A stretch of 64,000 bases of DNA from a virus: IMG/VR virus record IMGVR_UViG_3300045988_076436, one strand, 5' to 3'. The notes beneath the pieces are model-generated. The model made no database searches and was not told where the DNA came from. It worked only from the letters and a program-made list of their open reading frames with translations. Every line of letters starts with the position of its first letter. The first letter of the stretch is position 1. Of this stretch, positions 3,383-64,000 are shown in pieces. Made by a program: the position numbers and the translations under genes.

Positions 3383-3475
3383 TATCTTAACTTTCTTATG
3401 ATTGTGTAATATTCGTATGCAAAAATAGCCATATAAGAGGTGGACTGACTTTTAACTTTTGTGAGTTGCGTTGAG

Positions 3476-3483
3476 TACCTTTG
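3476..3483 (+). promoter_or_regulatory. Bacteroidota-type -7 box TAccTTTG
   Basis: Perfect TAnnTTTG 24 nt upstream of ATG 3507, in the divergent intergenic region 3383-3506. A conserved 16-mer GACTTTTAACTTTTGT lies just upstream (3447-3462). Confidence 0.45.
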
Positions 3484-3506
3484 TATAGAACAGAACCGTG
3501 ATTTTT

Positions 3507-3956
3507 ATGAAATACTTTGGCAGCATATTGGATTTTACAAGGGAGCGCAATGCCGACCTTATGAGGGTGTACCGCGACAGACTTGCCGAGGCAAGCATCA
3601 TCATCATGCCTGTTATCTTTCAGTTGGTGGCCGACTCTCCAGCTTCGCGTTTCTGGGTGAGCGAGGAGCGCGCGGCCATTGTCATTTCCGCTATGGCGGC
3701 AGGAAAGCCCATGCCGCGAATGAGGAGCAACAAGCGTGAGATGTTCGAGGAGATTTACCGCAGATACCTCCTCATGCGTGAGGATTATCCCGACAAGTCG
3801 GTCTATGAGTTGGTTACGAAGATAGTCAATCAACCTGCGCCCAAGTTCTACCTCACGCCTCGCACGGTCGGGGAGTTTATTTACCGCATAAAGAATGGAT
3901 GGTATGACAACCAATACGATAGATACAGAGATTGCCGCACTGCTTGCGGAGAATGA
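3507..3956 (+). CDS. small DNA-binding protein (small-terminase or Mor-like late-activator candidate)
   Basis: ORF-track 3498 is a GTG; the first ATG is 3507 (MKYFGSILDF...). C-terminal helix-turn-helix-like FYLTPRTVGEFIYRIKNG. Located directly upstream of, and overlapping, the large terminase. Confidence 0.5.
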   Translation: MKYFGSILDFTRERNADLMRVYRDRLAEASIIIMPVIFQLVADSPASRFWVSEERAAIVISAMAAGKPMPRMRSNKREMFEEIYRRYLLMREDYPDKSVYELVTKIVNQPAPKFYLTPRTVGEFIYRIKNGWYDNQYDRYRDCRTACGE

Positions 3957-20100: not shown

Positions 20101-23100
20101 TTAACCACGGACGCACCTTGTCGCCAAGTGCCTTTACCATCATGGAGGCATAGTCACCGAATGACTCGTTGCCACGCTCCACCATTGCCATAGCCAGACG
20201 CTGACCAACGGACATGAGTTTCTGACGCTGCTCTGCGGTCAGTTCTTCGGGATCACGGAACTTCAGCCCTGCATCGCCCTCGTCTGCACCAATGCCGAGA
20301 ATATCACGGATGTCATTCATCAATCCGTTCATTTCCTCGTCACTCACCTCATACTTAGGCTTTTCTGCCTCCTTGGTCGGCTGTTTGGGTTCTTCCTTGG
20401 TTGGCTCTGTCGGCTTTTGTTCTGTCACATCGGCCACCTCAACCTTGTTGGCAGGTTTCTTAGCTATGGTTTTCTTCCGTGTTGCAGGCTTCTTCGGCTC
20501 TACGGCATCGCGCAACTCTTGTGCGGTCAGTGGCTGTGCGTCTGCCACGGCATCGGCATTGCCCACCATGTCTGCTGCTTTCTTCGCGTCCTCCTCACTG
20601 CGGAACATCCAGCCTCCGCTCTTGCGGTCTTTCCAACCGCGTGCAGGAGAAAAGCGTCCCTCGCCAAGTCTCTCCTTGGCAAATTCACTTACGGCACGCT
20701 CTTGGTCGGCTGTCAGTGCGCCATCAAACGTAAGCAGGGATACATCGCTCGCCTTACCTTTCTTATTAGTATAGGTGGTAGGAGTGATGGTATAAGCTGC
20801 ATTGTCTGCATTTCCCGTTGTCGGTGCTGCCGTATCTTCCTTTGCAGGAGAACTTGCCACGGTCTCTTTCTTCACCCCGGCATACTCCGCAAACGGCTTG
20901 GTCTTGCGGTGGCTGCTGTCTATCCACTTCTCGAAATCTTCGAGGTTCGTTGTGGACACGATAATCCTGCGCCCATCTTCCCAACCTTTCTCATAGTTGG
21001 CCAGATAGTCGCTCTTCGCCTCGTCCATGTCGTTAAAGCCAAGCATCACCTTGTGCTCGTCAAACGTGCCATCGGGATTGTACTGGTCCACCACATACAC
21101 CTTGCGCCCGTTCCAACCGTCAATATCATTGGAGAGGAACACATCTATGTGGTCTCCGTCCACGCCCACTGCACCACGAATGTAGCCGTAAGTGTTGTTC
21201 ATCTTGCTTTCCCATTGTTTGCCGTTGGCATCCGTGCCTTTGCGCACACTGCCCTCTGGCTGCTCAATGGTAATGTCGAACGTGCCGACCTGCACATGAC
21301 CTTTCTTGTAGTTGCCGGCCTCTTTCTGTGCCTCGGTGGGTTCGGTGTTCACATCGGCTGATGCGGTCTTTATCTTGGCTGACAACGGCTGCTCCGCTCC
21401 GTCAAGGTGTTTGACAACCTCTTGGAGGTCGCCAAACTGCTTGCCGTCCACCTCATAGTAAGTACCGGGATAGTTCTTGCTCTCGTCTGGAGCGTCCACT
21501 TTGATTACTTCCTTGCCGTCAATGAGGAGTTTCTGCTTGTAGATGTCGCCATTTGCGCTTGGCTCTGTCCACTCCTCATCGGTTTCGGTAATGCGCTTGC
21601 GCAATGCCTCTTCCTCTGCCTCGGCAAGTGTGTCAGTATTTGGTTCTTCTGCCTGTGGAGTATTATCCTGCTTGGCAGGTTCGGTCTCGGCTACTGCTGG
21701 CTGTTGAGGCTCTGCACTGCGTTGTACAGCATCCGCAGTTTGTTCAGTTGCCTCGTTTCCTCCACGCTGTTCTGCCTCGGCTTCTGCGGTGCGCTTGCGT
21801 TCTGCAATGGCTGCATCGACGAGGGCTTGTTGTTCTCTTGGTGTTGCATTTCTGAATAATTCATTTACGTCATTAAGTATTTGTTCCTTGGAACGTACAT
21901 CGCCAGTAAACATATCCAACTGACCACCAGCTGGAGCTACTGCGGCACTATTATAGGTAGAGAGTACTTTGCGCAGGTCACTTGGCTTACCGCTGTTCAG
22001 TATGTCGGCAAGCATCAATACCGTGCCGTCCGTCACTCGGCTGTCTCCGTATTCATCATCAAACAGACCTTGCTCCCTGCCGAATGGCGACACAGGCATT
22101 CCGTCCTTGAAGATGTCGGGGTGTGCGCTCTTGGCTCTTGCCACGAGGTCAACGGCTGCACCCAACTCATTGCTTAGGTCGTAGCCACTTTTGGCGAGTG
22201 TGCGGTTATGGGCTATCTCGTTCAAGCCCATAATGACCGACTGGCGCAATGTGGGTGTACTGATGATATGGCGCACGGCATCGGGCGAAGTCTGAAAGAC
22301 CTTGCCTATAAGCGTGTTCTCGATAAGTTCCTTTCCTGCTGCCGACAACGAATTGCCTGTGCGCATTTCGGGCAGCTGCATCTCGTTGATGACTCCTGCA
22401 CCGAGCAACTGACTGATAGCCGAAGATACTGCCTTGTCGTCTGCGTAGTAGTCTGAAAGGCGGTCAAAGCGGCTTATGTCATTGGTGATGCTCGTGAAAA
22501 CATTGTCGGGGACAATCTTGCCGAGTTTCACCGCGTGCTCTGGCTTGCTCTGTTTCTTCTGCTGTTCAGCGTTGAAACGTGCGAATGTGGTTGCATCGTA
22601 GGGCAGTTGCTCGTCCGGGACAAACACCACACGCGGATGTTTCATACCGTCTATCTGCTCGGGAGTGAAACCGTACATCTGTCCGAACTCGCGCAGATGG
22701 TCGATATACGCCTTGTCTGTTCCCTGCTGAGCTGCAATGTCGCCCGACATGGTGCGGTTGTTGCCCGAAAGCACTACACCGTCCTTGCTCACGATGACAG
22801 GCGACTGCAAGGCGCGGCTGTCGTAATTGTTGGCAATGTCCCTCACTATCCGCTGTGCGTCCGTGTCGCGCTTGTAGTCGCGGTCGTTCACGCTCTCTCC
22901 GTTCTCGTCAATGGGGAAACCCTCGGTCGGTTCAAAGGCGTTGTTGATGTCGTGGCTTGCTGACGCGGCTCCTGCCTCGGTGAGGACGTAATGCCCACGA
23001 ATGGTAGAACCGTCCGCAAGGGTGAGTGCGTTGGGATTGCCCTCCACCTTGGCGGCACCGTTCCACTTGGCCTTTATCTTCGGGTTCACGGCATGAGTGC

Positions 23101-26100
23101 CTACCTCGGCTTGCTCGGCAGCTTTCTGTGCCGCAATGCGTTTCTGCTCCCCGACCTGCGCCACGGCTGCATCGTGCATCTGCTTGTCGCGCTCACGTTG
23201 CTCTGCCTCACGCTGTTCACGAATTGCACGCTTACGCTCGTTCATAAGGGCGTAAATCCTCGACCATGCGCCCAGTGTCTCCTCTGCCTCCGCCACTTGT
23301 GCGTTGTACTGCTCCATGGCGGCATTGTAGTTGGCATCGGCCTCCTGCTGTGCCTTGACCATCGCCATAGGCGAACCTTTGAGGGACGGTGCTTTCTTGG
23401 TCGGCTGTTTCTTCTTCAGCGCATCGAGTGTCTTTTGCGCTTGCTCCACCTGCGCATTGACAATGGCGGTGGTGTTGGCCTCGTTGCCGCCTGTAACCTC
23501 GTTGAGCGCGTCAAGGGCAGTCTCCTTGTCGGCCTTCTCAAACATGGGTTCGCCAGTCTCCTCATTAAGAGGAACACGCTCCAGTGCAGTCGGCTGGCGG
23601 TTGGCCTCTTTCCACTGCACGCCTTGCGCTTCAAGTTGGTGCTGGGCAAGCTCATTTCCTCCACGCGCCATCTGTACAAGTTCTTCAGTTGTCGGAGAGG
23701 CAGGAGCAACAACATCATTGTCTTGCGGTGCGGAATTATCTGAAGCCTCCTCGGTCGCATCCGCATCTTCGGCATATTCTCTCGTCCATACCGGATTACC
23801 ATCCGCATCATTAATGCTCTCGACCATATTCTCAAACTCCTCGACAGGGATAATCTGCACACGCTTTCCGTTTAACGGCTCGTCTGTGCGTATCTCTACA
23901 CCGTCATCGCTGATATTCTGCACCTCGCCATGAACGTTTGCACCATCACCGTCAAGGAGTGTAAAGGTGTCATTCACGCCATATTGTACACCCTCGAGCG
24001 TTTTTTGTACACTTTCGCCATCATTCTGTACATTTTCATCCGATTTTGGTACGCTTTCACCATTTTCCATACCACCAAGCACGGCCTCATGCTCAGCTTG
24101 AATGTTGGCATAAGCCTCGTCAAGTTCGGCTTGTGGGTCAATGGCATCACCGAGATTGAAGATTTGGTCGGGACTGGTAAACTTGTATTCGCCTGTCTCG
24201 GCATCGCATATCACAATGCTTTGGTCGGAGTTCTGTGTGTCTATGCCTGTACCATCGGGAAGTACTGCGACATTACCTTTTACAATGTACACAGGCTTGT
24301 CGTCCACCTTCATGGTAGCTGGTTGCACCATGCCGTTGTCCTTGTGGGTGTGTCGCTCCACATTGGCGGCTACCTCCCTGCGCTTATTCTCCATCGCATC
24401 GTTGGACGCATCCTGCACACCGTCCATCGCTGCCTTGGCATTGATGTAGTAGAGTACCGCATTCTGCTGGTCTTCCGTCAGTTCGGGGTCGTTGGCCAAT
24501 GCCCACGGATTATCCTGTATCTCGGCCATGCGCATTTCTGCGTCCGTGCCGAAAGCGTCCTCACATTCCTGCAAGGCTTCTTTCATGCGAATGGATATGG
24601 CATCAATATCGGCTTTCGCGTCCGCGTCTCCTTGCTCCATTTTGTCCCACAACAGGCGAGACTGGTCGTAAACGGCTGAGGCTCCTGCCTCCTCGTCCGA
24701 CATGGGTTGCTCGGCTTCCTTGCTTTGCTCCGGGAACAACCGCTCTATGTAGTCCTGCACAGCAGCCTTTTCAGGGTCAGTACGCTTGCTCGGCTCTTTT
24801 TTGATGGCCGCGTCCACATCTACGCCTGTCTCTTCCTTGATGGCTGCACGGATAGCCTCTGGACGTTCTGCGTCTGCCATGCCTCTGTTCTCTTCCATGA
24901 ACTTGTCAATGGCATCGACCATCTGCCCATAGTTGGCGATTGCGTCCTTGTCGCCCTCCTTTGCAGCTTGGTAGTTGCGCTTGACGGTTTCGGGGTCAGC
25001 ACCGGGGGCAACGGCTTCAACAGCTGCGTCCCACACCTTGTTGTCGGCTTTAGCCTCGGTGTAACGCTCACCTACATCAACGCTGTTGAGTTCGGCCTGT
25101 CGCATGATTTTGTCCTGCTCCCTCTTGGCTGATGCCTCGTCTGCAAAGCGTCTGTTCGTTACGACCTCGCCATTGGCTGTAACGGACTTCACGAAGATAT
25201 TGCCGTGTTCGTCCTTTTCGGTGGTGTACCCGGTAACAGTACCCATCGGCAACTGATGCCCGGTGAGGATATAATATGCCTTGGCTCTTGCGCTCTGGCT
25301 CACATTCGGGTCTTGCATGAGGCGTTCCATAGTCTCGTAACCGTCAAACTCGGGGTGTGTCTTGAGCCACTGCTTGCCCAAATCCTCAACCTCGGCTTCG
25401 GGAATGTCAAAGTTCATTACCTTTCCGTCCGTGGTTGTCGGCTGTTTTGCCTTGGCTTTGGGCTGCTGTTTTGGTGTACGCGTGAAGAGTGCCGCAAGGT
25501 CGCCATAGCCGTACTTCTGCAACTCCTCGCGCTCTTCCTTGGTGAATACCATGTCGCGCGGACTTGCGTCCAACTGCTTACGCAACAATTCACCAAAACT
25601 CATGCGGTTGTGATTGCGCTCCTGCATGGTCTTGGGGTTCTCGATAGGGCGCAACCCTGCAATAACCCTCGGAGCGGACTTCACCATGTGCTGACCCTTG
25701 AAACCGAGCATCATCGCCATGTTGTCCGTCCACACGTCCCATGCACTGCGCTTATTGGGATTGCCATCTTCCAACTTGGAATTTTCAATCCATTCGGGAG
25801 TAGAGAAGATTGTCCCCTCGGCAACGGTTGATGTCGCAAGTTCTCCAAAACGGATACCTCCCTTACCATACACGTTTGATGTACTTTTTACCCATTTGTC
25901 GGCAACATTGCCCAACAATGGGGAGATAGTGCCAGTTACAGAGCCAAGGATAGTGCCTCGTCCTGTCGATTTCAAGATGTCCTCTGCCGAATATCCCTCA
26001 TTCTCGCCTGTCTGCGGATTGATGTGTCCGCCATGCAGCCACTGGCTCTCGCCCTCCTTGATGCCCTCGTATGTGCCGAAGTTCAAGCCTCCACCAACCG

Positions 26101-53328: not shown

Positions 53329-53401
53329 GTCAATAAGAATTTAGTTCATGGCAAATTTACTTACAGGCATGGTTCTTTCCCTTTTATCTGTTGTGGCACA
53401 C

Positions 53402-53436
53402 TAAAAAAGGGACACAAGATTGCTCCTGCGTCCCTC
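53402..53436 (-). terminator. rho-independent terminator candidate
   Basis: Minus strand AGGGAC(53435-53430)...GTCCCT(53413-53408) followed by TTTTT. Confidence 0.45.
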
Positions 53437-53455
53437 TGATAGGTTCTCGTTTCCC

Positions 53456-53929
53456 TTACTGGAGGTCAAACACGCTCCAGTCTATGTTGTCTTTTTCTTT
53501 CCAACCGTCCATGATGGCGTTGAGAATGTAGGCTGATGCCTCCTTGCTGAACTTGATGAAGTCCTCTCTTGTCTCAAAGGTGTAGTACACTGGCGTTGCG
53601 TCCGCCTCCTCGTTGAGTTTCAGCGTGAGCGGATAGGCTATGCTCTCGTTGTTTTCCAAAGATGCGTAGTTGCGCTGCTTCTCGTCCGACAGCCATACCT
53701 TGATGCCGTCATACTCAAAGCGGTTCACAATCTTGTCCTTGGTCTCTGCGTCTATCGTGTCTCTGACAAGCTGCTTTATCTCGTCCATCGTGGGCTTGCG
53801 GCTGAACGTGTGGCGGTATTCATAGTTGCCGTCCTCGGTCTCGTAATAGCCGAAGTAGAGCAGCCATTTGTTCTTGCCTATGCGTTGCAGTCCATCTTGC
53901 CGTTGGGTTGTGCCGTATATCTTCTCCAT
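53456..53929 (-). CDS. hypothetical protein (157 aa) downstream of the RT
   Basis: Clean ORF, mixed alpha/beta style, with no resemblance to an Avd four-helix bundle. Confidence 0.55.
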   Translation of the reverse strand: MEKIYGTTQRQDGLQRIGKNKWLLYFGYYETEDGNYEYRHTFSRKPTMDEIKQLVRDTIDAETKDKIVNRFEYDGIKVWLSDEKQRNYASLENNESIAYPLTLKLNEEADATPVYYTFETREDFIKFSKEASAYILNAIMDGWKEKDNIDWSVFDLQ

Positions 53930-54004: not shown

Positions 54005-55495
54005 TTAAGTGAAGTTATACTTGCGCTTGCTGCCGTCAAACACCTCACACTTGATGATGGTCTCGAATGGAAAGCCGTCCTCTATGTCGCTTATCTGGTC
54101 AAGTATGCCTTTCATCTCCAACGAGGCGGTGAAGAACTTGCCCCATTCCGAGTTGGCTGGATTGCGGAATGACACCAAATAGCGGTCTTCGCCCTCTTTT
54201 GTGTCTATGCCTGTCTCAAAGTCGTGAATTTCTATCGGTATGTTCACGATGTCACCGAGGCGTGTCACCTTGCCGGGAAAGCGTTTCTTGCCGTCAGCAG
54301 GTGTATAGGTTACGCCCATTTCTGAAAACTTCTTCATGTGTTTACCTGTTAATGTATAATATAGATGTTTACAATCTGCGTGGCAAGCCATTCCCTTGAA
54401 TGACCCTATTATCTGTTGCCGCCTCTTGCGCGACTTTATCTTGGCGAGTTTCCGTGCAGCGTTCACCTTGGTACGCTTTCTCAGCAGGGAGTAGTCCCCA
54501 TAATCAACAAAGCCGAGTGCGTCCATTCCTGCACTGATGGGTGCAACTTTCTCACTCGGCTTTATTATCAGATTGTAGGGTTTGCATAGTCTATGCAGGG
54601 TGTCCCTGTGTTTCCACAACTCTTTCTTGTTGTCTCCAAGTATGTATATGTCGTCACAAAAGCGGTTGTAGTTGTCTTTTCCACATTCCTCTATCATGGC
54701 ATGGTCTATGTCGTTGTGGTACAGGTTGCCGAAAAACTGCGAGGAGCGTAGTCCCTTGCTGATGCCTACGTTGTCATTCGGGTGCAGAGCCTTTACAAAG
54801 TCTATGAGTATGGGCAGCAGCACTGGGTCGGCAATGTAGCGTTTTATTATCTCTATCAGTCGGTCATGCAGTATGTGGTCGTAGTAACCTTTGTAGTCGC
54901 TTTGATAGTAGTATATGAGTTTCGGATTGTTCCGCCTTGCCTCCTGCATCTTGTGATACAATCCGTGTGGCCCTCTTCCCTCTATCGAGGCTGCGGTGTT
55001 CTCTATCAGTATGGGCGCAAGGTGTTTTTCCACTATCTCCATGATGGCGTTGCTGCCCACACGCTCTATGACGGACGGTGCTTGCACGGTTCTTATCTTC
55101 GGGCCGTCTGCCGTCTCAAACGATTTAAGGTGCTTGATGCGGAATGTGCCGTTGGCTATCTGTGCCTTTAGCATGGCGATGATGTCCGCCTTGCGTTTCA
55201 TGTAGCGCACCATGCGTGGCGTGCATTCCACTCCGTCTATAACAATATTCTCCCTCCACCGTAGGCCGTTGCGAGTATCTGCGTTGTGCAGGTTCGACAT
55301 GACGCGCTTGAACGAGCGTTCCATGTTCTCGTCCGCTATGATTTCGGGGATAAGGTCTAATAACGGAAAACAGATAGAAGTCTTTTCTTCTACCTGCCCC
55401 AATAGTTCTTCCAATGTATTGACAGCCTTCCTGTCCTGTGGGGAGATACTTGCGCACTCCCCACATGTGGTTAATGTCGTGTTCCGGCTTTCCAT
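54005..55495 (-). CDS. DGR reverse transcriptase (496 aa from ATG 55495)
   Basis: RT motifs YYYQSDYKGYYDHILHDRL (motif A region), ISKGLRSSQFFGNLYHNDIDH (the SQ..N motif typical of DGR RTs) and YNRFCDDIYILG (YxDD variant). A cognate TR lies immediately upstream. ORF-track start 55558 is a GTG inside an RNA hairpin. Confidence 0.88.
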   Translation of the reverse strand: MESRNTTLTTCGECASISPQDRKAVNTLEELLGQVEEKTSICFPLLDLIPEIIADENMERSFKRVMSNLHNADTRNGLRWRENIVIDGVECTPRMVRYMKRKADIIAMLKAQIANGTFRIKHLKSFETADGPKIRTVQAPSVIERVGSNAIMEIVEKHLAPILIENTAASIEGRGPHGLYHKMQEARRNNPKLIYYYQSDYKGYYDHILHDRLIEIIKRYIADPVLLPILIDFVKALHPNDNVGISKGLRSSQFFGNLYHNDIDHAMIEECGKDNYNRFCDDIYILGDNKKELWKHRDTLHRLCKPYNLIIKPSEKVAPISAGMDALGFVDYGDYSLLRKRTKVNAARKLAKIKSRKRRQQIIGSFKGMACHADCKHLYYTLTGKHMKKFSEMGVTYTPADGKKRFPGKVTRLGDIVNIPIEIHDFETGIDTKEGEDRYLVSFRNPANSEWGKFFTASLEMKGILDQISDIEDGFPFETIIKCEVFDGSKRKYNFT

Positions 55496-55589
55496 ATTTA
55501 TATGCTGTTGCCGAGGCTCTAATCCCTCGGAGTATGTTTGTGGCAATCCTCGTGCCACGTCAGAGACCTCCGATTAAACTTAACCAAGA
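55496..55589 (-). ncRNA. DGR spacer RNA between TR and RT (structured)
   Basis: Two 6-bp hairpins on the coding strand: GTGGCA-N7-TGCCAC (55540-55558) and CCGAGG-N8-CCTCGG (55511-55530). Confidence 0.5.
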
Positions 55590-55705
55590 GAATTTCAGCC
55601 GCCCACCGTAGTTCGTGTTCGAGTTCGAAGAAGCGTTGTTCGCGTTCGCATAGGCGAGACCGCTGTTCGCATTCGAGTTGTTGCCAGACCGCAGAACACA
55701 GCGGC
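55590..55705 (-). repeat. DGR template repeat (TR)
   Basis: 116 bp aligned without gaps to 56545-56660 (offset 955). All 19 mismatches are T on the plus strand, i.e. A on the coding strand, of this copy. It encodes an AAC-rich frame: RCVLRSGNNSNANSGLAYANANNASSNSNTNYGGRLKF. Confidence 0.95.
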
Positions 55706-55736
55706 GCGTGGGATTTTCTGCCTTTTGTTCCTTTGC

Positions 55737-56039
55737 TTACATAATCGGACGCACTATGTCCACTTTCAGACCAAGCGCATCAATGATGCGGAAGAACATG
55801 CCGACACCCGGCTCTATCACGCCTTTCTCTATGCGTGAGATATAGGTTTTGTCTGTTCCCACTTTCTTGGCAAGGTCTGATTGCGTCATGTGCTCTTGCT
55901 TTCTTGCGTCAAGGATTATCTGACCTACACAATAGTTGGTTGCCTCCTTTCTGAACGCTTCTCTTTCTGCAGTTCCTACTGCGCCATACTTGGCATCAAG
56001 AATGGCATCGAAACTGCTAATGTCATTTCTTTGCTGCAT
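55737..56039 (-). CDS. XRE-family HTH antitoxin (HigA-like)
   Basis: QIILDARKQEHMTQSDLAKKVGTDKTYISRIEKGVIEPGVGMFFRIIDALG. ATG 56039 (ORF-track 56060 is a TTG). Overlaps the toxin gene by 17 nt. Confidence 0.8.
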   Translation of the reverse strand: MQQRNDISSFDAILDAKYGAVGTAEREAFRKEATNYCVGQIILDARKQEHMTQSDLAKKVGTDKTYISRIEKGVIEPGVGMFFRIIDALGLKVDIVRPIM

Positions 56040-56358
56040 AATATTCCTTTTTAAGTTCAAGTGCTTTCTCTATCTCCTTTGAGGGCGTCTTTTGGGTTTT
56101 CTTCTGAAAGCCGTTGAACAGCATCACGATGTTGCCCTCATCAAAGATGAAGAATGCACGGTATATATTCCCATTGTAACTGGCTCTAATCTCATAGAGT
56201 CCGTCCTTGATGAACTTCACAAATTTCTCACTCACTCTCTCCTGCATCTTCAGCACATCAAGCACATAGTCTATCTTCTTCTGTGCGCCCATTTCCAAAG
56301 AGCGGTAGAACGTGAGGAAGTAGTCTTTGTAAAGTAATATCTTCCTCTCTGAATTCAT
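56023..56358 (-). CDS. Gp49/HigB-like (RelE-superfamily) toxin
   Basis: FLTFYRSL...KKIDYVLDVLK...KFIKDGLYEIRASYNGNIYRAFFIFDEGNIVMLFNGFQKKTQKTPSKEIEKA matches the Gp49-like (DUF891) pattern. The toxin-first gene order is as in HigBA. Confidence 0.8.
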   Translation of the reverse strand: MNSERKILLYKDYFLTFYRSLEMGAQKKIDYVLDVLKMQERVSEKFVKFIKDGLYEIRASYNGNIYRAFFIFDEGNIVMLFNGFQKKTQKTPSKEIEKALELKKEYYAAKK

Positions 56359-56362
56359 GCTG

Positions 56363-56370
56363 CAAAGGTA
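56363..56370 (-). promoter_or_regulatory. -7 box TAccTTTG (minus strand) 4 nt before the toxin ATG
   Basis: Plus-strand CAAAGGTA at 56363-56370. It lies downstream of a terminator-like hairpin, so the TA pair seems to have its own, nearly leaderless promoter. Confidence 0.4.
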
Positions 56371-56423
56371 ATACTTAAAGTTGATATATCCTACAACTTT
56401 TGCAATTATTTTGCATCACTCAT

Positions 56424-56443
56424 AAAAAACTCGCTTACGCGAG
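56424..56443 (-). terminator. small GNRA-loop hairpin plus T6 after the DGR target gene
   Basis: Minus strand CTCGC-GTAA-GCGAG followed by TTTTTT. Confidence 0.45.
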
Positions 56444-56452
56444 AAAGCAGGG

Positions 56453-56487
56453 AGAGGGAGCAGCCTCCTATCGTCGGCTCTCCCTCT
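56453..56487 (-). other. 12-bp (one bulge) GC-rich hairpin downstream of VR
   Basis: AGAGGGAG(C)AGCC / GGCTCTCCCTCT with a 10-nt loop. It begins about 30 nt after the target stop codon and about 57 nt after the VR 3' end. Confidence 0.7.
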
Positions 56488-56517
56488 GACGCTTTTTTCG
56501 TGGCTGCGCTTGCCGCT

Positions 56518-59500
56518 TTATCCGACTATTACGAATTTGCCGCGGAAGGCCAGCCGCCCACCGAAGCCCGTGAGCGAGAACGAAGAAGCGAAGTTCGCGA
56601 CCGCAAAGGCGAGACCGCTGTTCGCATTCGAGACGCCGCCAGACCGCAGAACACAGCGGCCTCTGCTGCCGGGAAACCACAAACCTGCCGCATAGTGGGT
56701 GGTGTACTTGCTCGTGTCGGTCTGATGCACCTTGCTTGGCAAGATGTCGCACTTCGCTCCATGCACCACTCTCACAACGCAGTTGCCGTTAGAGTTCACA
56801 CTCTGCACCACACGCTCGGTTTTCTTCACCGGGTCATAGATGTGGAATTTGTAGTCTATGGGGTCATCGTTGGTCTCCACACAGCGGTTCTTGTAGAACG
56901 TCTCGTAGCTCTGCACGTTTCCTGCTATGTAGTCCATCCATTCCGAGTCGCAGCCCACATAGTGTTTGAGTCCCATGATGGAGTTCATTGCGTTGCCCAC
57001 ATACGAGGTGTCGGCCATACCTATGTTGTCGAGGCTGTTCAGCGTGGCATCGTGTGCGCCATTGCCAACAACAGACTGCTCGTTGGTCGTGCCGTGGGTC
57101 GCCCACCACAGGTTGCTGATTTCCTTGTGCTGCTCGTAGTCTTGGAGCTGGTAGCCCTCTCCGCGCATGTGCGCACTGTTTTGGAAGTCCTTTGCCGTGT
57201 AGTGTATCGTCCCGGTCGGTGTCTCTGTCGGGTTGCCGTCAGTGTCGTATGCCCATTCTGCCGAGGTCTGCGAAGTGCCGTCTCCCTTGCGTGAGCGCAC
57301 CGCGCCCGATATGCTCCTTGGTCGTTTCAGTCCGTCTATGGTGATGGGGTATGTTCCCAAGAGGCTGTCGTTCTCGCCAACGGTGTGCTCCGTCCATTCG
57401 GGTTCTATGGCCTCTATATGCTCGCTATCAACGGCAAGACACAGGCTGTCCTCTATGTCGCGGTACGAGGTGAAGTACATCCACTTCGCTCCGCCAGGCA
57501 CATCGCAGAACACGTAGTTGCCTATCGAGAAGTCGAAGTAGGTGTGGCTCACCATCATGTTGAACTTGCCTACTATCTGTCCGTTCTCGTCCGTGAACAC
57601 GGCTCCGAGCCTTGCGTGGTTCAGTCCCGGCCATCTCACCTGCTTCATGCCCTCCACGTCCATGCGGTAGGCGTTCACGTTGGCAGCGGTGGTGATGATG
57701 TTCTCGTCTATCACCGTGCCTACCTCTGCCTCGTCAGCATACACGCCTGTGTTCTCCGCATAGAGCAGTGCCGATAGCATGGCCTCGCGCTTGTTGTTCA
57801 CGGTGGATAGCGGCTCGTTCTCCGTGGTCGAATAGACGATGTACTTCTGTTGGTTCTTGTAGTCGTTCACGCCCTTGTACCAGTGGTGGGGCAGATGGTG
57901 GAAGATGTCAAAGCCCTCTCCTGCGCTATCGCCCACATCGAAACTCTCGCCTGTGGCAAGATAGTTGAAGTCGCTGTCGCTCAGTTGCACGCCCTCCATC
58001 TGTTTGAGTTTGGAGTTGTAGGTACACTTGTAGGCGTGGGTCTCCTGCAATATCTTCAGTGTGTGTCCGCTCGCCACAAAGGTCTTGTCGTAGTCCGAAC
58101 CTGTCTTGTTTTCGGGGTTGCTGTATCGCTCACAGAAGTCTCCGCTCACGATGTCGTCTATCTTCACCACCGAGAACTGCGAGTTGATGACGGTCAGTTT
58201 CGGGAAGTATTTCTGCAATGCCTCCACCTCGCTGTCCTCCACAAGTTCTGTCAGTATCCATCGGCCGATGATGCCGCTGCACTGCCCGGTCTCATCGTAG
58301 GTGCTGCCGTTCGCGTCTATGCCCACGGCTTCGCTCTGCATGATGCCGCGCAGCATCTCCACGCTGGCGGTGGCGTTCACGCCCGGTATGCGCACGCTCT
58401 TCAGCTGTCCTGCCGTGGTTATCTGCCGCAGCAGGGTCATGGTGTCGATGTGCGGACACTCGTCAAGGAACATTTTCTTCACGTTCGTCATTCCTGCTAT
58501 GGTCAGTCCGCCAGGATAGGTCAGCTTGGGCAGGTTCTTGAAGTAGAGCGTGGTCATGGTGGCTGGCAGTTCAAGGGTCTCTATCGGGGCTGTCTCGGCA
58601 AGGTCTATGCTCGACAGTTGCGAACCGCTCGCCAACACCTCTTTCAGTCTCGGGCAGTACGAGGCGATGATGCTTGTTACCTTGGTGTTGCGTGCGTCTA
58701 TGCGTCTGAGGAAACTCTTGTTGCCCATGTTGAGCTGCGTGATTGCTCCGCTTTCCTCGGCTGGCGTGTAGTCCGCTCCGCCAAGTATCAGTTCTTGCAG
58801 CATCGTGCAGTTCGAGATGTCCCAACCCTCGGCTTTCGGGGTGCAGCCGCTGATGTCAAGACTGGCAAGGCGTGTCGCTCCGAACACGTAGAGCATCGTT
58901 CCTGCGCCTGTGGCGGTCATGCCGCTCTTCAGCGTGTAGCTTTCTCCTGCTTTCAGATAGCAGCTGTCCACACAAGCGTCCGCACGGTCCACTCCTAATC
59001 CGAAGAAGCCGTCCTGCACTGCCGTTATCTTGATGCTGATGTCCGTACCCACGGCACGCATCTTGAACGGATTAGTGTACAGCTCGCCCACTTGGTAGTA
59101 GCCGTCACGGTAGGCAAAGCGTTTCTCAAACGTCACGGGCAAGTCCTCATATCGCAATCCGTGTACGGCATAGTAGTAGTTTGCACCTGCCTTGGAGTTC
59201 TCGATGTACTTGCGCTCTCCGTCAAACGAGCTGGTTATCTTCGCCCACTTCGCTATGCGGTCGGTGATCCAGAGTTTCTTGCAGCCGTCTGCGGAGAATA
59301 TCTTGATGCCGTCTGCCTCCGCGCTGCGCATATCGCCCGCTATGTCGTGCAGCGTGATGGTGGTCTTGCCCTCATCTTCAAGCCAGAACTTGTCAGCTGC
59401 ATAACCTTGCTTGAACATTACAGAATTCCAACCTTGGTAATAATGCTTAGTGTCTGTCACGCTGTCCAAATCCCATGGCACAGTAATACCGCAGTCATTG

Positions 59501-62500
59501 TCAGCAAGCCAACAACAGTCTCCGTCATACCAATGGTTGAAGTAGGCGCGTATGCTGCCGTTGATGTCAAGATAGAACGAAATCATCATGTTCTTGCTTC
59601 GTTGGTCAACAGCAAGCACATAATCAGTACCTATAATGTAACAACCCGTAGAACGAACGTTGGCATAAAGGTAGAGTTCCTCGCAGAACTTTTTCAATCG
59701 GTTCTCCTTTGTTCCTGCCACGCTCTTGCCGTGCAGGGTGATGTTTCCGTCTGCCTCGGTACGGTCTTGCGAGCATTGCTGTGTCCATAGCAGCCACTTG
59801 TATAGGTTGTACGGCACTTTCTTTCCCTTGGCGTAGAGGTCGTTCAAGTCGTCATCGTCGGGGTATCGGCTCTCGTAGTAGCCGAGCCACACGGGTTCGC
59901 CTGTCGATTGGTCTATGCGCATGAGGTCGTCCACGCTGTTCACGCCTTGCAGCCAACAGAACGAGTCGTATTTCAAGTACTCAAAGCACTCTACCGGGTT
60001 CAGCACCCTGCCTGTCACGCCCCATTTCTTGGTGCTCGTGTCATACTGCATCTTGCCTGTGGTGTCTTTCCACTTGCCTCCGCTGTATTTCACATACTTG
60101 TAGTCGTTCGTCAGGTACACCGTTCCCCAGTCGTAGTTGTTCACATCGTCTGCCAGCACCTCGGCAAGGCTCTTGTCCACTTCCGTGGGGTCGGCTGTGG
60201 CGGTGGTCTCCTGCATCGTGCCTGTGCCGTCATTCTCCAAGAAGATGTGCTTCTCTCCGCAGTTTTCGCTCAGCATGTAGATGTTCGAGGCTATCAGCTC
60301 TTCGCTCTTCGCCAAGGTCTGCACCTTGAAGATGTTGAGGTCTTGGTTTTTCTCGGCCACGAGTTCCACAAAGTCGCCATAGTTCAAGCAGTCGCTGTTG
60401 TAGCCGCTCACTTTCTCGAAGCCGAAGAACGATGGGTTGCCCTTGTCCACGTTGAAGTTGGCCTTGGCATGGAAGTAGGCGTAGGTCTCGTTGGTCGCGT
60501 CCACGCTCTGCTGGTCGGTGCGGAATAGGGCGCACGTCACGCTGTCGATGCTGGTGTTCATCGTGTCGCCTCCGTTGTAGGCATTCTGCGCTGGGGTCAT
60601 GTAGTCCGCTCCCATGGCTCGCTGGGTCTTGTTCATCAGCTCCATGGTCGCTCCGTTGTTCGCGCCTGTCGAGTCGGAGTAGTCCACCTTGATGGTGATG
60701 GTCTTTACCCACAAGCCTCCGTCTATCACCTGCACTTGGCTCTTCGCGGCCATCTTCTTGGCCTTTTGGAACTTGGCCAGTGCCACTGGGTCGTTCTTGA
60801 AGTCCTCCTCTGTGTGGAGCATCTCTATCTTGCAGCCTTTGAACTTGCCTTTCTTGTTCTTCACGGGCCGCAGCGATGAGGTCGTGCCTTGGTTTGTGGT
60901 CGGCACGTTGTACACCTTGCAGTCCTGCCATGGCCTGTCGGGGAAACGGATTACCCAGTCAAAGTATGCCTTGGTCTTTTTGTCTCCGTCCAGCTTGTCG
61001 AGGTAGCCGGGGTAGCTCTGCTCGATGTCGGGGGTGTCGGCATTCTTCAGCAGGGTCACGCAGCATAGTCCTGCGTTCATGCACGCTTGCATGGTCGGCC
61101 TGTCCTTGGTTGTTCCCTCTGCGGTCTGCGAGGCCATCACTTGGTTCTTCTCGTACTCCGTCAGCATGGCTGCGGTGTCTTTCTGTCCCACCAAGTAGTT
61201 GTTGAATGCCTGTCGGTAGTTGTAGTAGGTGGCCCAGCCGATGGCACGGTACAGGTAGATGTCGGCTTTCGTGCCGTCAAACTTTATCTGCATGTCGTTG
61301 TGGGCAAACTTCCCGGCATTGTAATAGGTGGCTGCGGCCTCGTCTCCGTTCACATATATCTTGATGGAGCCTATGCCGCTGTATGGGGCTATGCTGGTCG
61401 GCTCTATCACAATGTCGAAACGTGTCTCCTTGTCAGTGGCATACAGGGCTACGGCTGTCTGCTGTGCGCCCAAGTCATCGGGGTTGGCTGCGGTTGCTCC
61501 ATCACAGGTGAACACGAGTTTCTCGCCTGTCAAGTAGAAGCCGAGCTGGTTGTCGCCCAGGCAGTCGATGATGCGTGCCGTGCGGTCTTCCACATTTTTC
61601 ACCTTTACCGTGAAACTCAGTGCCATGCCGTTCTGTTCGATGCTGGTGTTGGCGAATGGCTTGAACGAGCACACGGCTTTCATGTCCTCGGCTATGCGGA
61701 GTGCCATGCGTCCCTTGTCGTTCTCCGTGCCGTAGGTGGGCGTGCCGTAGGTGTCCTTGACAAATCCGTTGCTCGACCAGTTGCAGTTCTCAACGGTGAT
61801 TTCCACTCCTCCGTCCTTGATGGTCTTGTCGGTCTCTCCGTTGCTGCGTGAGTCCATCGTGATGTTGAACTCGCGCATGGTAGTCACTTCCTCCACATCT
61901 ACAAGCGAGCCATCAACAATGAATGTGGCGGTTTCTGATGCGCTGTCTCCGCACGTCACTTTCACCGACACGCTCTTTGTGCCGTCATGCACGCTCTCCT
62001 GCACTTGCTTGGTGAACGTGTTGGTCTGTCCCCGGTAGGCCACAGTGGTGGTCTCCTGCGCTCCGTCATACCACACCACGGCTTGCGGCTCGTCCGTGTC
62101 GGCTGCATACACGGCATAGTCCACCTCGATGTTCTCATAGAGTTTTCTCTTGCCTTGCAGCTGCTCGGTGTACCAGCGCATGCCCACTATCGGGGTGTTG
62201 TTGCCGCTCTCCACCACCATGACGGCAGTGTGGAGGTAGTTGCCCACCACGCCCGAACCTACATCTTCTCCGTGTATGCGCAGGGGGTATGCGCCATGTG
62301 TCAGTGTCTCGCCCAAGCAGCTCTTCGGGTCTATGGTGATGGAGTGCGAGTAGGTGTCGAGAACTACGCTTGTGCCGAGTGTCTGCCACTCTCCGTTTAT
62401 GTATATCTCGGTTACTACCTTGATGCCTTTGTCCGATGCGTTGTTGGCAAACTTGTACATCGGTATGCTCTTGGCGGCTCCTCCTGCGGCAAGGGCGGTG

Positions 62501-64000
62501 CTTGCCGTGTAGTTGAGGGTCTGCACACTGCTGATGGTAACATCTACACCGCTCACGTTGATGTTCCTGCTGCCTGTGTTTCCTGCATCATCATAGGCGA
62601 TAAGTTGGAAACGCTTGGTGGTGGCGGTTACGAAGTAGCTGCTCACGTCCATTTCGAAGTCGTAGGTGTCTCCGCTTGCCGATGACGCTCTGTTGAACAT
62701 GAATGTCTCCAAGGTCTGCCCGGTGTCGCGATCTTTGAGCAGCACCTTTTCTATCATGTTGCTCAGTTCTTGGCTGCCTTGTGTGGTAACGCTTCGTACA
62801 GCAGCTTTCATCACCACGCTGCCGCCAGCCTTGGCATACAGCGGACTCTGCTCGAATTGTATGCTCACAATCGTACCTGTGCTTTCTCCGCCTCCTCCGC
62901 CTACGGCAAACTGCACCTCGTCGCCCACGGCTTCCTGCCCGGCATTCTGCAGTTGCAGCTTCACCACGCCCTGCGTCTCGGTGTCAATGTGCAGTGTGGT
63001 GGGTATGTTGGCGTATGCACCTCCTGTGGAGAATGCCTCCTTGCCGTCCTTTTCGGGGGTGTCCGAGGTCGGCACGGCATTGTTGCCGCCTCCTCCGAAC
63101 TCCACCCAAGGTTTCAAGTCTGCCGGGTTGATGTCGTCCACGGTGCGTGTGAACTGGTAGGCTTCCCACTTGGGCGAGCCGTTGCTGGTCACATCGGCTG
63201 TCTTATAGGTCAGCACGACACCGCTCTTCATATACGATAGTCCGCTTTCTTTCTCCTTGTCCTGCACAGCTTTGATGGCGGTCGAAAGGGTGTACTCGGT
63301 GTCCTCGCAGATGTCGTTCACGTTCACCGTGTTGCCTATGGCACTGCCGTTCGAGCCGAAGTCTGTCCAGTTGGCTTCGTTTTTCCAGTCGGTCTCGGTT
63401 TCCTTGCCGTAGTTCGTCCACTGCTTGTTTTGTATGCCTGTCTCCGAAAGAAACGACAGCACGATACCGGGTTTCATGTATCTTGCTTTGTTCTTCAAAT
63501 CGAAGATTTTTTCAAGCACCACGGAGAACGACACTTCACGGTCGCCCAACGACAACAGCACATTGGCGTTGATTGTGTTGCGGTTCAGCAACTCCGCGCT
63601 GTTCTCGTCTATCAGTTGTCGGCTGATGGTTGCCGTGCTCTCTGCCTCGCTCATGCGCTCCTGCAACTCCGCTCCCTCGTCACCGGGGAATGCCGTGCCG
63701 CTTTTATGACCGAGTGCCAAGTCCGAACCGATTACGACCAATTTCGTACCACCCCAACGGTAAGTCTTGTTGGTGGTTACGTCCATGAAGATTTTGCCGC
63801 TGTGGGGCTTGCGTCCCTGCATCGCCCCATCACCAAAGAGGTCTCCGTCCAACCAATTATTATAATAGGTAACGGTCGGACGCAGGTCAAAGTCTGACTC
63901 TGAGGGCTGCGAGTAGCACAATACAAACGTGTCGGAGTCTTTGTCGTACACTACGCTGCAATTCTCGTCCGTTGAAGATTTGCTGATTGACTGGTATTGC
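56518..64000 (-). CDS. giant fibre/receptor-binding-like protein, DGR target (>=2,477 aa; 5' end probably outside the window)
   Basis: Stop at 56518-56520. The ORF-track 'M' at 63951 is a GTG and the frame stays open to nt 64000. Leucine-rich-repeat stretch (LASLDISGCT...LQELILGG...LKEVLASGSQLSSIDL...). C-terminal C-type-lectin-like VR scaffold (GLKHYVGCDSEWMDY ... GGRLAFRG). Confidence 0.85.
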   Translation of the reverse strand, partial: QYQSISKSSTDENCSVVYDKDSDTFVLCYSQPSESDFDLRPTVTYYNNWLDGDLFGDGAMQGRKPHSGKIFMDVTTNKTYRWGGTKLVVIGSDLALGHKSGTAFPGDEGAELQERMSEAESTATISRQLIDENSAELLNRNTINANVLLSLGDREVSFSVVLEKIFDLKNKARYMKPGIVLSFLSETGIQNKQWTNYGKETETDWKNEANWTDFGSNGSAIGNTVNVNDICEDTEYTLSTAIKAVQDKEKESGLSYMKSGVVLTYKTADVTSNGSPKWEAYQFTRTVDDINPADLKPWVEFGGGGNNAVPTSDTPEKDGKEAFSTGGAYANIPTTLHIDTETQGVVKLQLQNAGQEAVGDEVQFAVGGGGGESTGTIVSIQFEQSPLYAKAGGSVVMKAAVRSVTTQGSQELSNMIEKVLLKDRDTGQTLETFMFNRASSASGDTYDFEMDVSSYFVTATTKRFQLIAYDDAGNTGSRNINVSGVDVTISSVQTLNYTASTALAAGGAAKSIPMYKFANNASDKGIKVVTEIYINGEWQTLGTSVVLDTYSHSITIDPKSCLGETLTHGAYPLRIHGEDVGSGVVGNYLHTAVMVVESGNNTPIVGMRWYTEQLQGKRKLYENIEVDYAVYAADTDEPQAVVWYDGAQETTTVAYRGQTNTFTKQVQESVHDGTKSVSVKVTCGDSASETATFIVDGSLVDVEEVTTMREFNITMDSRSNGETDKTIKDGGVEITVENCNWSSNGFVKDTYGTPTYGTENDKGRMALRIAEDMKAVCSFKPFANTSIEQNGMALSFTVKVKNVEDRTARIIDCLGDNQLGFYLTGEKLVFTCDGATAANPDDLGAQQTAVALYATDKETRFDIVIEPTSIAPYSGIGSIKIYVNGDEAAATYYNAGKFAHNDMQIKFDGTKADIYLYRAIGWATYYNYRQAFNNYLVGQKDTAAMLTEYEKNQVMASQTAEGTTKDRPTMQACMNAGLCCVTLLKNADTPDIEQSYPGYLDKLDGDKKTKAYFDWVIRFPDRPWQDCKVYNVPTTNQGTTSSLRPVKNKKGKFKGCKIEMLHTEEDFKNDPVALAKFQKAKKMAAKSQVQVIDGGLWVKTITIKVDYSDSTGANNGATMELMNKTQRAMGADYMTPAQNAYNGGDTMNTSIDSVTCALFRTDQQSVDATNETYAYFHAKANFNVDKGNPSFFGFEKVSGYNSDCLNYGDFVELVAEKNQDLNIFKVQTLAKSEELIASNIYMLSENCGEKHIFLENDGTGTMQETTATADPTEVDKSLAEVLADDVNNYDWGTVYLTNDYKYVKYSGGKWKDTTGKMQYDTSTKKWGVTGRVLNPVECFEYLKYDSFCWLQGVNSVDDLMRIDQSTGEPVWLGYYESRYPDDDDLNDLYAKGKKVPYNLYKWLLWTQQCSQDRTEADGNITLHGKSVAGTKENRLKKFCEELYLYANVRSTGCYIIGTDYVLAVDQRSKNMMISFYLDINGSIRAYFNHWYDGDCCWLADNDCGITVPWDLDSVTDTKHYYQGWNSVMFKQGYAADKFWLEDEGKTTITLHDIAGDMRSAEADGIKIFSADGCKKLWITDRIAKWAKITSSFDGERKYIENSKAGANYYYAVHGLRYEDLPVTFEKRFAYRDGYYQVGELYTNPFKMRAVGTDISIKITAVQDGFFGLGVDRADACVDSCYLKAGESYTLKSGMTATGAGTMLYVFGATRLASLDISGCTPKAEGWDISNCTMLQELILGGADYTPAEESGAITQLNMGNKSFLRRIDARNTKVTSIIASYCPRLKEVLASGSQLSSIDLAETAPIETLELPATMTTLYFKNLPKLTYPGGLTIAGMTNVKKMFLDECPHIDTMTLLRQITTAGQLKSVRIPGVNATASVEMLRGIMQSEAVGIDANGSTYDETGQCSGIIGRWILTELVEDSEVEALQKYFPKLTVINSQFSVVKIDDIVSGDFCERYSNPENKTGSDYDKTFVASGHTLKILQETHAYKCTYNSKLKQMEGVQLSDSDFNYLATGESFDVGDSAGEGFDIFHHLPHHWYKGVNDYKNQQKYIVYSTTENEPLSTVNNKREAMLSALLYAENTGVYADEAEVGTVIDENIITTAANVNAYRMDVEGMKQVRWPGLNHARLGAVFTDENGQIVGKFNMMVSHTYFDFSIGNYVFCDVPGGAKWMYFTSYRDIEDSLCLAVDSEHIEAIEPEWTEHTVGENDSLLGTYPITIDGLKRPRSISGAVRSRKGDGTSQTSAEWAYDTDGNPTETPTGTIHYTAKDFQNSAHMRGEGYQLQDYEQHKEISNLWWATHGTTNEQSVVGNGAHDATLNSLDNIGMADTSYVGNAMNSIMGLKHYVGCDSEWMDYIAGNVQSYETFYKNRCVETNDDPIDYKFHIYDPVKKTERVVQSVNSNGNCVVRVVHGAKCDILPSKVHQTDTSKYTTHYAAGLWFPGSRGRCVLRSGGVSNANSGLAFAVANFASSFSLTGFGGRLAFRGKFVIVG
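56545..56660 (-). repeat. DGR variable repeat (VR) at the 3' end of the target gene
   Basis: See TR. Encodes RCVLRSGGVSNANSGLAFAVANFASSFSLTGFGGRLAF, 8 codons before the stop. Confidence 0.95.

Follow-up and report, generated by a model that had tools for sequence, protein, structure and literature searches.

Organization of the locus and its repeat pair

We analyzed a stretch of viral DNA 64,000 nucleotides (nt) long (IMG/VR record IMGVR_UViG_3300045988_076436; hereafter, the window) that contains a diversity-generating retroelement (DGR). The parts of the element all lie on the minus strand, in the following order (Table 1): a target gene whose C-terminal end contains the variable repeat (VR), a toxin gene, an antitoxin gene, the template repeat (TR), an RT-3 RNA, the reverse transcriptase (RT) gene, and a gene encoding a small CH1-like protein. 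The general sequence hallmarks of a DGR are present: an RT of the DGR clade, TR/VR differences confined to adenines, a VR in the C-terminus of its target, and a non-coding TR beside the RT gene. Together with the comparative data presented below, they lead us to conclude with high confidence that the element is a functional DGR of the type, found in Bacteroidales phages, that does without the accessory protein Avd.

Table 1. Features of the retroelement and its surroundings in the window
Feature	Coordinates	Strand	Remarks
Target (variable-protein) gene	56518..63951	minus	2477 amino acids (aa); GTG start at 63951; VR in the last ~40 codons
VR, 110-nt core	56551..56660	minus	contains the 12-nt GC block GGTGGGCGGCTG at 56551-56562; IMH-like 3' boundary
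Conserved strong hairpin	56451..56491	minus	after the target stop codon, 57-61 nt 3' of the GC block
Second hairpin	56424..56443	minus	CTCGC-GTAA-GCGAG (56430-56443), then T6; terminator-like; only in spacers with a toxin-antitoxin pair
Bacteroides-type -7 promoter box	56363..56370	minus	TAccTTTG, 5 nt before the toxin ATG; consensus match only
Toxin gene	56023..56358	minus	Gp49 / RelE-HigB family, 111 aa; PF05973, 80.9 bits (cut-off 23.9)
Antitoxin gene	55737..56039	minus	HTH_3 (XRE/HigA-like), 100 aa; PF01381, 52.1 bits (cut-off 23)
TR, non-coding	55596..55705	minus	24 A, none in 'codon' position 3; GC block 55596-55607
RT-3 RNA	55430..55575	minus	Rfam RF03068, 61.7 bits (gathering score 40.5); model positions 1-148 of 148
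DGR RT gene	54005..55495	minus	496 aa from ATG; RVT_1; phrog_1423, 302 bits; bRT-like by sequence and fold
CH1-like accessory gene	53456..53929	minus	157 aa, pI 4.80; phrog_19239
Terminator-like hairpin and T run	53406..53437	minus	follows the CH1-like gene; the transcription unit likely ends here

A base-by-base comparison upheld the ungapped alignment of TR and VR at an offset of 955 reported in a preliminary description of this sequence; the two copies are 85% identical over 110 nt. There are 16 internal mismatches, and 16 of 16 fall on a T of the plus strand in the 55.6-kb copy, corresponding to an A on the minus (coding) strand. The 110-nt TR core contains 24 coding-strand adenines, and our recount agrees with the earlier figure of 16 of 24 mismatched. 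The probability that 16 mismatches would all fall by chance on 24 adenines among 110 positions is ~1e-13 (hypergeometric).

The earlier count of adenine-specific mismatches was 19: its 16 internal mismatches stand, while the three at the 3' boundary do not. These three (55593-55595), where the TR has AAA and the VR has GCC, are located past the end of the GC block common to both repeats, GGTGGGCGGCTG. Among the 62 related pairs of TR and VR considered below, 60 of the VRs have GCC and 58 of the TRs have AAA at this triplet. The triplet is a fixed flank difference, analogous to that between the initiation of mutagenic homing element IMH and IMH*, and not a product of adenine mutagenesis; the true number of mutagenesis mismatches is therefore 16. 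The GC-rich 12-mer itself, previously proposed as an IMH-like end, is present in both repeats: it is the same in TR and VR in 54 of the 62 pairs, with the flanks diverging immediately afterwards, as at an IMH-type 3' boundary.

The TR copy lies outside every minus-strand open reading frame (ORF) and is AAC-rich, both as first described; in the VR frame it reads ..GNNSNANSGLAYANANNASSNSNTNYGGRL... None of its 24 adenines occupies codon position 3, and most belong to AAC codons, so that randomization of 14 codons in the target cannot create a stop codon. The assignment of the 56.6-kb copy to the last ~40 codons of the 2477-aa ORF was likewise confirmed. A search for further VR copies, suggested at the same time and made here by BLAST with the TR as query, returned no second VR in the whole window.

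Variation among related loci

A pattern scan of IMG/VR in which the A positions were wild-carded recovered 119 stretches with the same cassette (loci are referred to below by L numbers). We analyzed 62 complete TR/VR pairs, comprising 60 IMG/VR stretches, the sister phage BS-TP4 (L001), and the window. The search pattern fixed 23 non-A positions, and these were excluded from the statistics. Across the 62 pairs, 674 of 713 TR/VR mismatches occurred at TR adenines; expressed per site, 45.1% of TR-A positions differed, compared to 1.0% of unconstrained non-A positions. The same pairs contained 62 distinct VR cores and 15 distinct TR cores.

The most informative comparison is provided by eight loci, including the window, whose TRs lie within 1 nt of the window's. 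Their TR cores are identical and all eight VRs are different, with polymorphism at 23 of 24 A positions versus 5 of 63 unconstrained non-A positions (Fisher P 3e-15). The IMG/VR members of this set with an RT in view have RTs that are 96-100% identical, and all bear the same toxin-antitoxin pair. A TR that is conserved and a VR that varies among near-identical genomes is the pattern of information flow from TR to VR. The VR polymorphism test that had been envisaged for reads was thereby carried out on assemblies, with variation concentrated at TR-A positions. In L085, a 6-nt in-frame duplication in the TR is mirrored in the VR of the same locus, with substitutions at A sites; an insertion present in both repeats implies that the whole repeat is copied from TR to VR.

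Three relatives carry a single repeat copy each: L002 (phage BKO1-TP3, PQ571269, positions 12706-12842), L043 and L022. The remaining copy consists of a VR-type 5' flank, a TR-type core with all adenines kept, and a TR-type 3' flank, and the target gene continues directly into the RT-3 RNA and RT, both of which are intact. L002 and L043 correspond to the VR flank plus the TR of L025, a relative bearing a toxin-antitoxin pair; L022 is a chimera with three VR-type substitutions followed by TR sequence. The collapse is the result of homologous recombination between VR and TR that deleted the spacer, including the toxin-antitoxin pair. One of the collapsed cases is the genome of a cultured isolate.

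Other loci show erosion of the repeats. In L073 and L036, whose RTs are 100% identical to the window's, TR adenines have dropped to 10 and 18, respectively, compared to 24 in the window, and in each locus the VR has the same substitutions as the TR, suggesting VR-to-TR conversion or self-targeting. L150 has identical TR and VR, with only six A remaining, while in L114 the VR is identical to the A-rich TR at all 110 positions. These four states could be real gene conversion or chimeras of short-read assembly.

The reverse transcriptase, its partners and the target

The gene that follows the TR encodes an RT, as had been noted. When compared with all PDB sequences, the protein is closest to the RT of Bordetella phage BPP-1 (bRT; 8ub7, E 1.6e-19); the segment ISKGLRSSQFFGNLY aligns to bRT IGSLTSQLFANVY, and the motif FCDD to the YMDD of bRT. 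An AlphaFold model (mean predicted local distance difference test score [pLDDT] 75.5) had as its best fold matches 8ubd and 8ub7, both cryo-electron microscopy structures of the BPP-1 RT (E ~2e-16; template modeling [TM] score 0.75 on target), with group II intron RTs ranking behind. The whole-chain fold match spans the RT core only. Compared to bRT, the protein has ~100 extra residues at its N-terminal end and a C-terminal extension of ~95 aa.

Across 36 aligned homologues with identities as low as 55%, residues D200, S252-Q253 and C280-D281-D282 are strictly conserved. Within motif C, the Arg, the Cys and both Asp residues never vary, and Phe is the consensus at the Tyr position. Since FCDD is kept throughout a clade that shows A-only mismatches, the substitution is compatible with adenine-mutagenic activity. 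The C-terminal extension (54005-54290; residues ~405-496) is very strongly conserved, is predicted to be beta-rich (pLDDT ~80-86), and contains the motifs WGKFFTAS and DGFPFET. A Pfam search with this extension gave no match; it does match phrog_19665, a stand-alone 105-aa phage protein family annotated as function unknown. We regard it as a candidate Avd substitute or nucleic-acid-binding module.

The reading that the repeats are an ordinary duplication, diverged by point mutation or recombination, next to an RT derived from a retron, a defense system or a group II intron finds some encouragement in weak matches of the RT to generic and defense RT models. The scores, however, are far below cut-offs: the group II model gave 50.6 bits versus a cut-off of 300, and PADLOC returned only generic RT matches of no more than 77 bits, while bRT is the best PDB match. 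Nor would such an origin account for mismatches restricted to adenines (P ~1e-13 in the window; 45% versus 1% over the 62 pairs) or for an invariant TR facing a variable VR, and we consider its probability negligible.

The RT family has 1376 members at E ≤1e-5 in the protein collection searched and is present in genomes of Phocaeicola, Bacteroides, Alistipes, Prevotella, Muribaculaceae, Duncaniella and Barnesiella. Contigs L122, L134, L145, L163 and L169, which also bear the RT, were binned to metagenome-assembled genomes (MAGs) of Eggerthellaceae, Sphaerochaetaceae, Anaerovoracaceae, Eubacteriales and Oscillibacter; two of the five have an RT 94% identical to the window's. These labels most likely reflect mis-binned phage contigs.

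The RT-3 RNA begins 21 nt 3' of the TR GC block (55596) and extends over the first 66 nt of the RT gene. It scored above threshold in 9 of 10 relatives tested (53.5-74.5 bits in those nine). It has been reported that another RNA, RT-10, lies between the TR and brt of BPP-1, and Weinberg et al. raised, as a speculation, the use of further RT motifs by DGRs other than that of BPP-1 (PMC5737381). RT-3 takes the place that the spacer RNA has in BPP-1, and the DGR concerned is verified by the pattern of its adenine mutagenesis. A literature search for RT-3 linked to a DGR found no paper. This RNA, the similarity of the RT to that of BPP-1, and the invariant TR set against VRs that vary at A sites all bear out the original identification of the element as a DGR.

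Neither Avd nor HRDC was detected among the cassette proteins (Pfam, NCBIfam) or among the 98 ORFs of 85-210 aa outside the window's two giant ORFs (Pfam), and relatives with a VR-TR spacer of 275-346 nt have no room for Avd. The CH1-like gene has a homologue in every one of the genomic loci that leave room for it after the RT (47 of 47), directly downstream in 46 and ~3 kb away in L123, and it also follows the RT in those viral-contig loci that reach that far. The protein matched no family above threshold, giving only a sub-threshold hit to DUF4376. Presumably the CH1-like protein, the extra domains of the RT, or both stand in for Avd. A sub-threshold match to the Rfam family BjrC68 (53400-53449, minus strand; 23 bits versus a gathering score of 39) falls on the terminator-like hairpin that follows the CH1-like gene; chance is its most likely explanation.

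The target could alternatively start at an ATG at 63822, which would give a protein of 2434 aa. It matches phrog_14959 (function unknown) over its full length with 2569 bits, and has homologues of 2645 aa in BS-TP4 and 2638 aa in BKO1-TP3. Searches of Pfam, NCBIfam and PDB sequences with the target gave no match. For CotH and Laminin_G_3 in particular, four 600-aa pieces yielded no Pfam match even at E 5, and phmmer against PDB returned nothing. The last 450 residues were modeled with AlphaFold (pLDDT 64 overall and <50 over the VR); in BFVD, the weak structural neighbors of this model are phage tail-fiber-like and 'spore coat protein' predictions, with the latter at the top. In annotated relatives the target homologues lie among structural and lysis genes, and a tail or head-tail role has been suggested for such targets (PMC12694917, PMC5758913). 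A virion or receptor-binding role is therefore probable for the target.

By analogy to BPP-1, a transcript containing the TR and the adjoining RT-3 RNA would be bound by the RT, with the RT-3 RNA presumably providing the priming and positioning function of the BPP-1 spacer RNA and the small acidic CH1-like protein probably assisting in place of Avd. Synthesis of cDNA would start at the 3' side of the TR, as expected from the BPP-1 paradigm and the 8ub7-8ubf structures, and the RT would copy the TR into cDNA while placing random bases opposite template adenines. The cDNA would then replace the VR at the 3' end of the target gene, with the 3' limit of replacement at the GC block, where the TR and VR flanks begin to differ. 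The predicted outcome is randomization of 14 codons in a C-terminal, putatively ligand-binding tip, with no stop codons.

Several points weigh against a functional element of this kind. Motif C reads R-F-C-D-D (54656-54667; RT residues 278-281) in place of the usual YxDD. A BPP-1-like hairpin abutting the GC block is absent, the conserved hairpin lying ~60 nt off. A C-type lectin fold was not shown for the VR domain, whose model is poor and which gave no significant PDB fold or profile match and no Pfam match. The pattern used to collect relatives held 23 positions fixed, and the evidence for activity is comparative, coming from assembled contigs rather than from direct observation here of cDNA or mutagenesis. 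The missing Avd, the unusual FCDD motif, a toxin-antitoxin cassette between promoter and TR that may disrupt the TR leader, and the existence of decayed or collapsed relatives (L002, L043, L022, L150, L151) would also suit a fossil, that is, a DGR that diversified its VR in the past and is now inactive in the window genome. We consider this very improbable. Among phages with RTs 96-100% identical, identical TRs and the same toxin-antitoxin pair, every phage has a VR of its own, altered at A sites only; FCDD and the lack of Avd are common to the whole clade, which shows A-only mismatches throughout; and the RT, RT-3 RNA and CH1-like gene of the window are all intact.

The toxin-antitoxin cassette and the lineage of the element

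The genes between VR and TR are predicted to form a type II, RelE/HigB-like toxin-antitoxin pair: the toxin gene comes first, the antitoxin gene overlaps the toxin stop codon, and both products score above their Pfam cut-offs. The toxin further matches TIGR02683 and two phrogs annotated as 'toxin' (phrog_2523 and phrog_3445). A pattern scan of the minus strand from the VR to the end of the RT gene found only one TAnnTTTG box, at the toxin start. Just upstream of it (56375-56415, minus strand) are two palindromes, TGCAA-N5-TTGCA and AAGTTG-N10-CAACTT, which are conserved in L098 and absent from spacers lacking a toxin-antitoxin pair; they are candidate antitoxin operators. No terminator-like site was found between the antitoxin gene and the TR, and co-transcription of the toxin-antitoxin genes, TR and RT is plausible.

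The spacers of related loci fall into three classes by VR-TR distance. In those of ~954 nt, the toxin-antitoxin pair has 94-100% identity to that of the window. Also in this class, a variant allele (66-68%/80-85% identity; 68%/80% beside an RT 96% identical), with its breakpoint inside the antitoxin gene, occurs in L098, L119, L076 and L134, whose RTs are 94-96% identical to the window's. Spacers of ~1010 nt (the BS-TP4 type; L001, L123, L128) contain a pair from the same two families that is ~35% identical, and spacers of ~316-347 nt contain none. Alignment of the spacers revealed shared flanks, consisting on the left of the target 3' end and first hairpin and on the right of the ~20 nt before the TR, between which the interior, promoter region included, is wholly replaced from class to class. 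The first hairpin (56451-56491) is kept in all spacer classes, and the distant loci L038 and L066 have a different, equally strong hairpin at the same distance; it may be either a terminator or a DGR target-site hairpin.

The cassette is not tied to one RT lineage. In L160, from a Duncaniella MAG (2967-3588), the RT is 49% identical to the window's and the toxin-antitoxin pair, in the same slot, is 79-80% identical, which implies horizontal movement of the cassette from one DGR to another, even where the two are distant. Most simply, VR and TR would act as homology arms for swapping the intervening DNA. In more than 30 Bacteroidales loci with RT identities of 42-64%, the RT is preceded by the TR at 100-280 nt and the TR by the VR at 275-346 nt, the spacer is free of ORFs, and mismatches are on A only. 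These distant loci indicate an ancestral layout of target, TR and RT with neither Avd nor a toxin-antitoxin pair. The pair entered the leader of the TR-RT transcription unit later and does not belong to the core of the DGR.

An alternative is that the toxin-antitoxin pair is integral to the DGR, either supplying and autoregulating the promoter for the TR RNA and RT or stabilizing the VR-TR interval against recombinational loss. Its appeal lies in the lone TAnnTTTG box at the toxin start with palindromes upstream, the continuity from antitoxin to TR without a terminator, the filling of one slot by three different alleles of the same toxin-antitoxin family, the ~80% identical pair of L160 beside an RT only 49% identical, and the natural occurrence of VR x TR collapse. 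Yet most of the wider family, as well as close relatives (RT ~86% identical), have no such pair and still diversify at A only; homologous exchange between the conserved VR and TR flanks explains the recurrence of the slot without invoking function; and the collapsed BKO1-TP3 lineage arose from a parent that bore the pair, so the cassette did not prevent loss. We therefore judge an integral role unlikely. The idea of the pair as a guard against collapse was also considered by itself: the parent of BKO1-TP3 and L043 had the pair and the parent of L022 had none, which gives no support either way.

Slightly more doubtful still is the proposal that the cassette is functionally coupled to the DGR by supplying the only recognizable promoter and operator for a transcript running through toxin-antitoxin, TR, RT-3, RT and CH1. 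If it were true, DGR mutagenesis would come under toxin-antitoxin autoregulation, dependent on stress or on the toxin-antitoxin ratio; alternatively, the cassette would be an addiction module guarding the recombination-prone VR-TR interval. Repeated capture into the same slot by DGRs with 49%-identical RTs would then reflect selection, beyond the effect of homology arms.

Returning to the element as a whole, the preliminary description had called it complete and placed it within the BPP-1 paradigm. The identification as a DGR holds; the likeness to BPP-1 was overstated in that there is no Avd, a toxin-antitoxin pair sits in the slot, and the accessory gene lies downstream of the RT. As in BPP-1 (mtd-avd-TR-brt), a target with a C-terminal VR is followed on one strand by a non-coding TR and then the RT; TR/VR differences are limited to adenines, the TR is AAC-rich with A in codon positions 1 and 2, and both repeats end 3' in a GC-rich block after which the flanks diverge. 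A structured RNA also separates TR from RT, and the BPP-1 RT is the closest solved homologue. In contrast to BPP-1, the interval between VR and TR holds no Avd, only a toxin-antitoxin pair, or nothing in relatives; the RT has 496 aa, N- and C-terminal extensions and FCDD, whereas bRT has 328 aa and YMDD; the spacer RNA is Rfam RT-3 rather than RT-10 (PMC5737381); the hairpin is ~60 nt from the GC block instead of adjacent to it; and the 2477-aa target has no similarity to Mtd.

A closer fit is provided by the survey of Wu et al. 2018 (PMC5758913), who described Lineage 3 as lacking avd, with Lineage 3A restricted to Bacteroides and relatives. Their Architecture A has no accessory gene; their Architecture E has CH1, a motif-less protein of 160-169 aa and pI 4.7 that occurs only in Avd-less DGRs. 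They also reported C-terminal RT extensions in ~20% of DGR RTs, targets of ~2000 aa with weak CotH / Laminin_G_3 motifs (CLec3 category f1), and, in general terms, ORFs nested between DGR parts. The window resembles Lineage 3/3a and Architecture E1 in having no avd, HRDC or MSL gene, in belonging to Bacteroides and relatives, in its phage context, in a target of >2000 aa, and in the C-terminal extension of its RT. Its 157-aa protein of pI 4.80, motif-less and flanking the RT, is likewise similar to CH1, although matched by published description only. The length of the window target fits category f1; the target gives no Pfam signal for CotH or Laminin_G_3, and its top BFVD neighbors are named 'spore coat protein'. 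We found no mention of a toxin-antitoxin pair in Wu et al. (PMC5758913), where nested ORFs are treated in general terms only.

More recent reports bring the element closer to cultured phages. Macadangdang et al. described a 'domain group 3' of variable proteins >2000 aa in Bacteroides (bioRxiv 10.1101/2024.11.15.621889), and the DGR of BS-TP4, with gp14 as its target, was reported in 2025 (PMC12694917). Both BS-TP4 (PQ571277) and BKO1-TP3 (PQ571269) share the gene order of the window and have a homologous target, RT and CH1-like gene; their RTs are 72-74% identical to the window's in nucleotide sequence and 73-74% in amino-acid sequence. BS-TP4, like the window, has a TR/VR pair, which differs at nine positions, all of them A, and the same slot is again filled by a toxin-antitoxin pair, here a different allele ~35% identical to the window's. 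BKO1-TP3 differs in having one repeat copy, the VR x TR recombinant, and no toxin-antitoxin pair. The cultured relatives infect B. salyersiae and B. koreensis. No phage record exceeded 80% over the 5-kb locus queried, and the window phage is a distinct species-level relative.

By published description, then, the window DGR is a member of an already documented Avd-less Bacteroidales lineage and not an Avd-containing, BPP-1-type DGR, in keeping with the original remark that the element class is not new; the lineage is catalogued in all three sources (PMC5758913, PMC12694917, bioRxiv 10.1101/2024.11.15.621889). Three points are modestly new: a toxin-antitoxin cassette lies between VR and TR and is exchanged horizontally, three relatives have undergone VR x TR collapse in nature, and the spacer-RNA position is occupied by RT-3. 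With class and lineage documented, the main value of the locus is a clean, well-evidenced annotation. It also offers handles on the poorly understood mechanism of Avd-independent DGRs, namely the RT-3 RNA, the CH1-like gene, the RT C-terminal domain, toxin-antitoxin swapping, and VR x TR collapse. The hypermutation device is directed at the tip of a giant, probably host-binding, phage protein, and phages of this kind are widespread in the human gut, with the sister phage BS-TP4 found in 31% of 930 viromes (PMC12694917).

Elsewhere in the window, an uninterrupted ORF of 6448 aa (8111-27457, minus strand) is extraordinarily large for a ~64-kb phage. Small ORFs across the window gave Pfam matches to DUF4494 (E 6.5e-53), HU/Bac_DNA_binding, DUF6291, DUF7833, YopX, DUF1064 and a second HTH_3. 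A further small ORF resembles the internal virion protein T7_gp14 (E 8e-6), which hints at podovirus-like ejection proteins.

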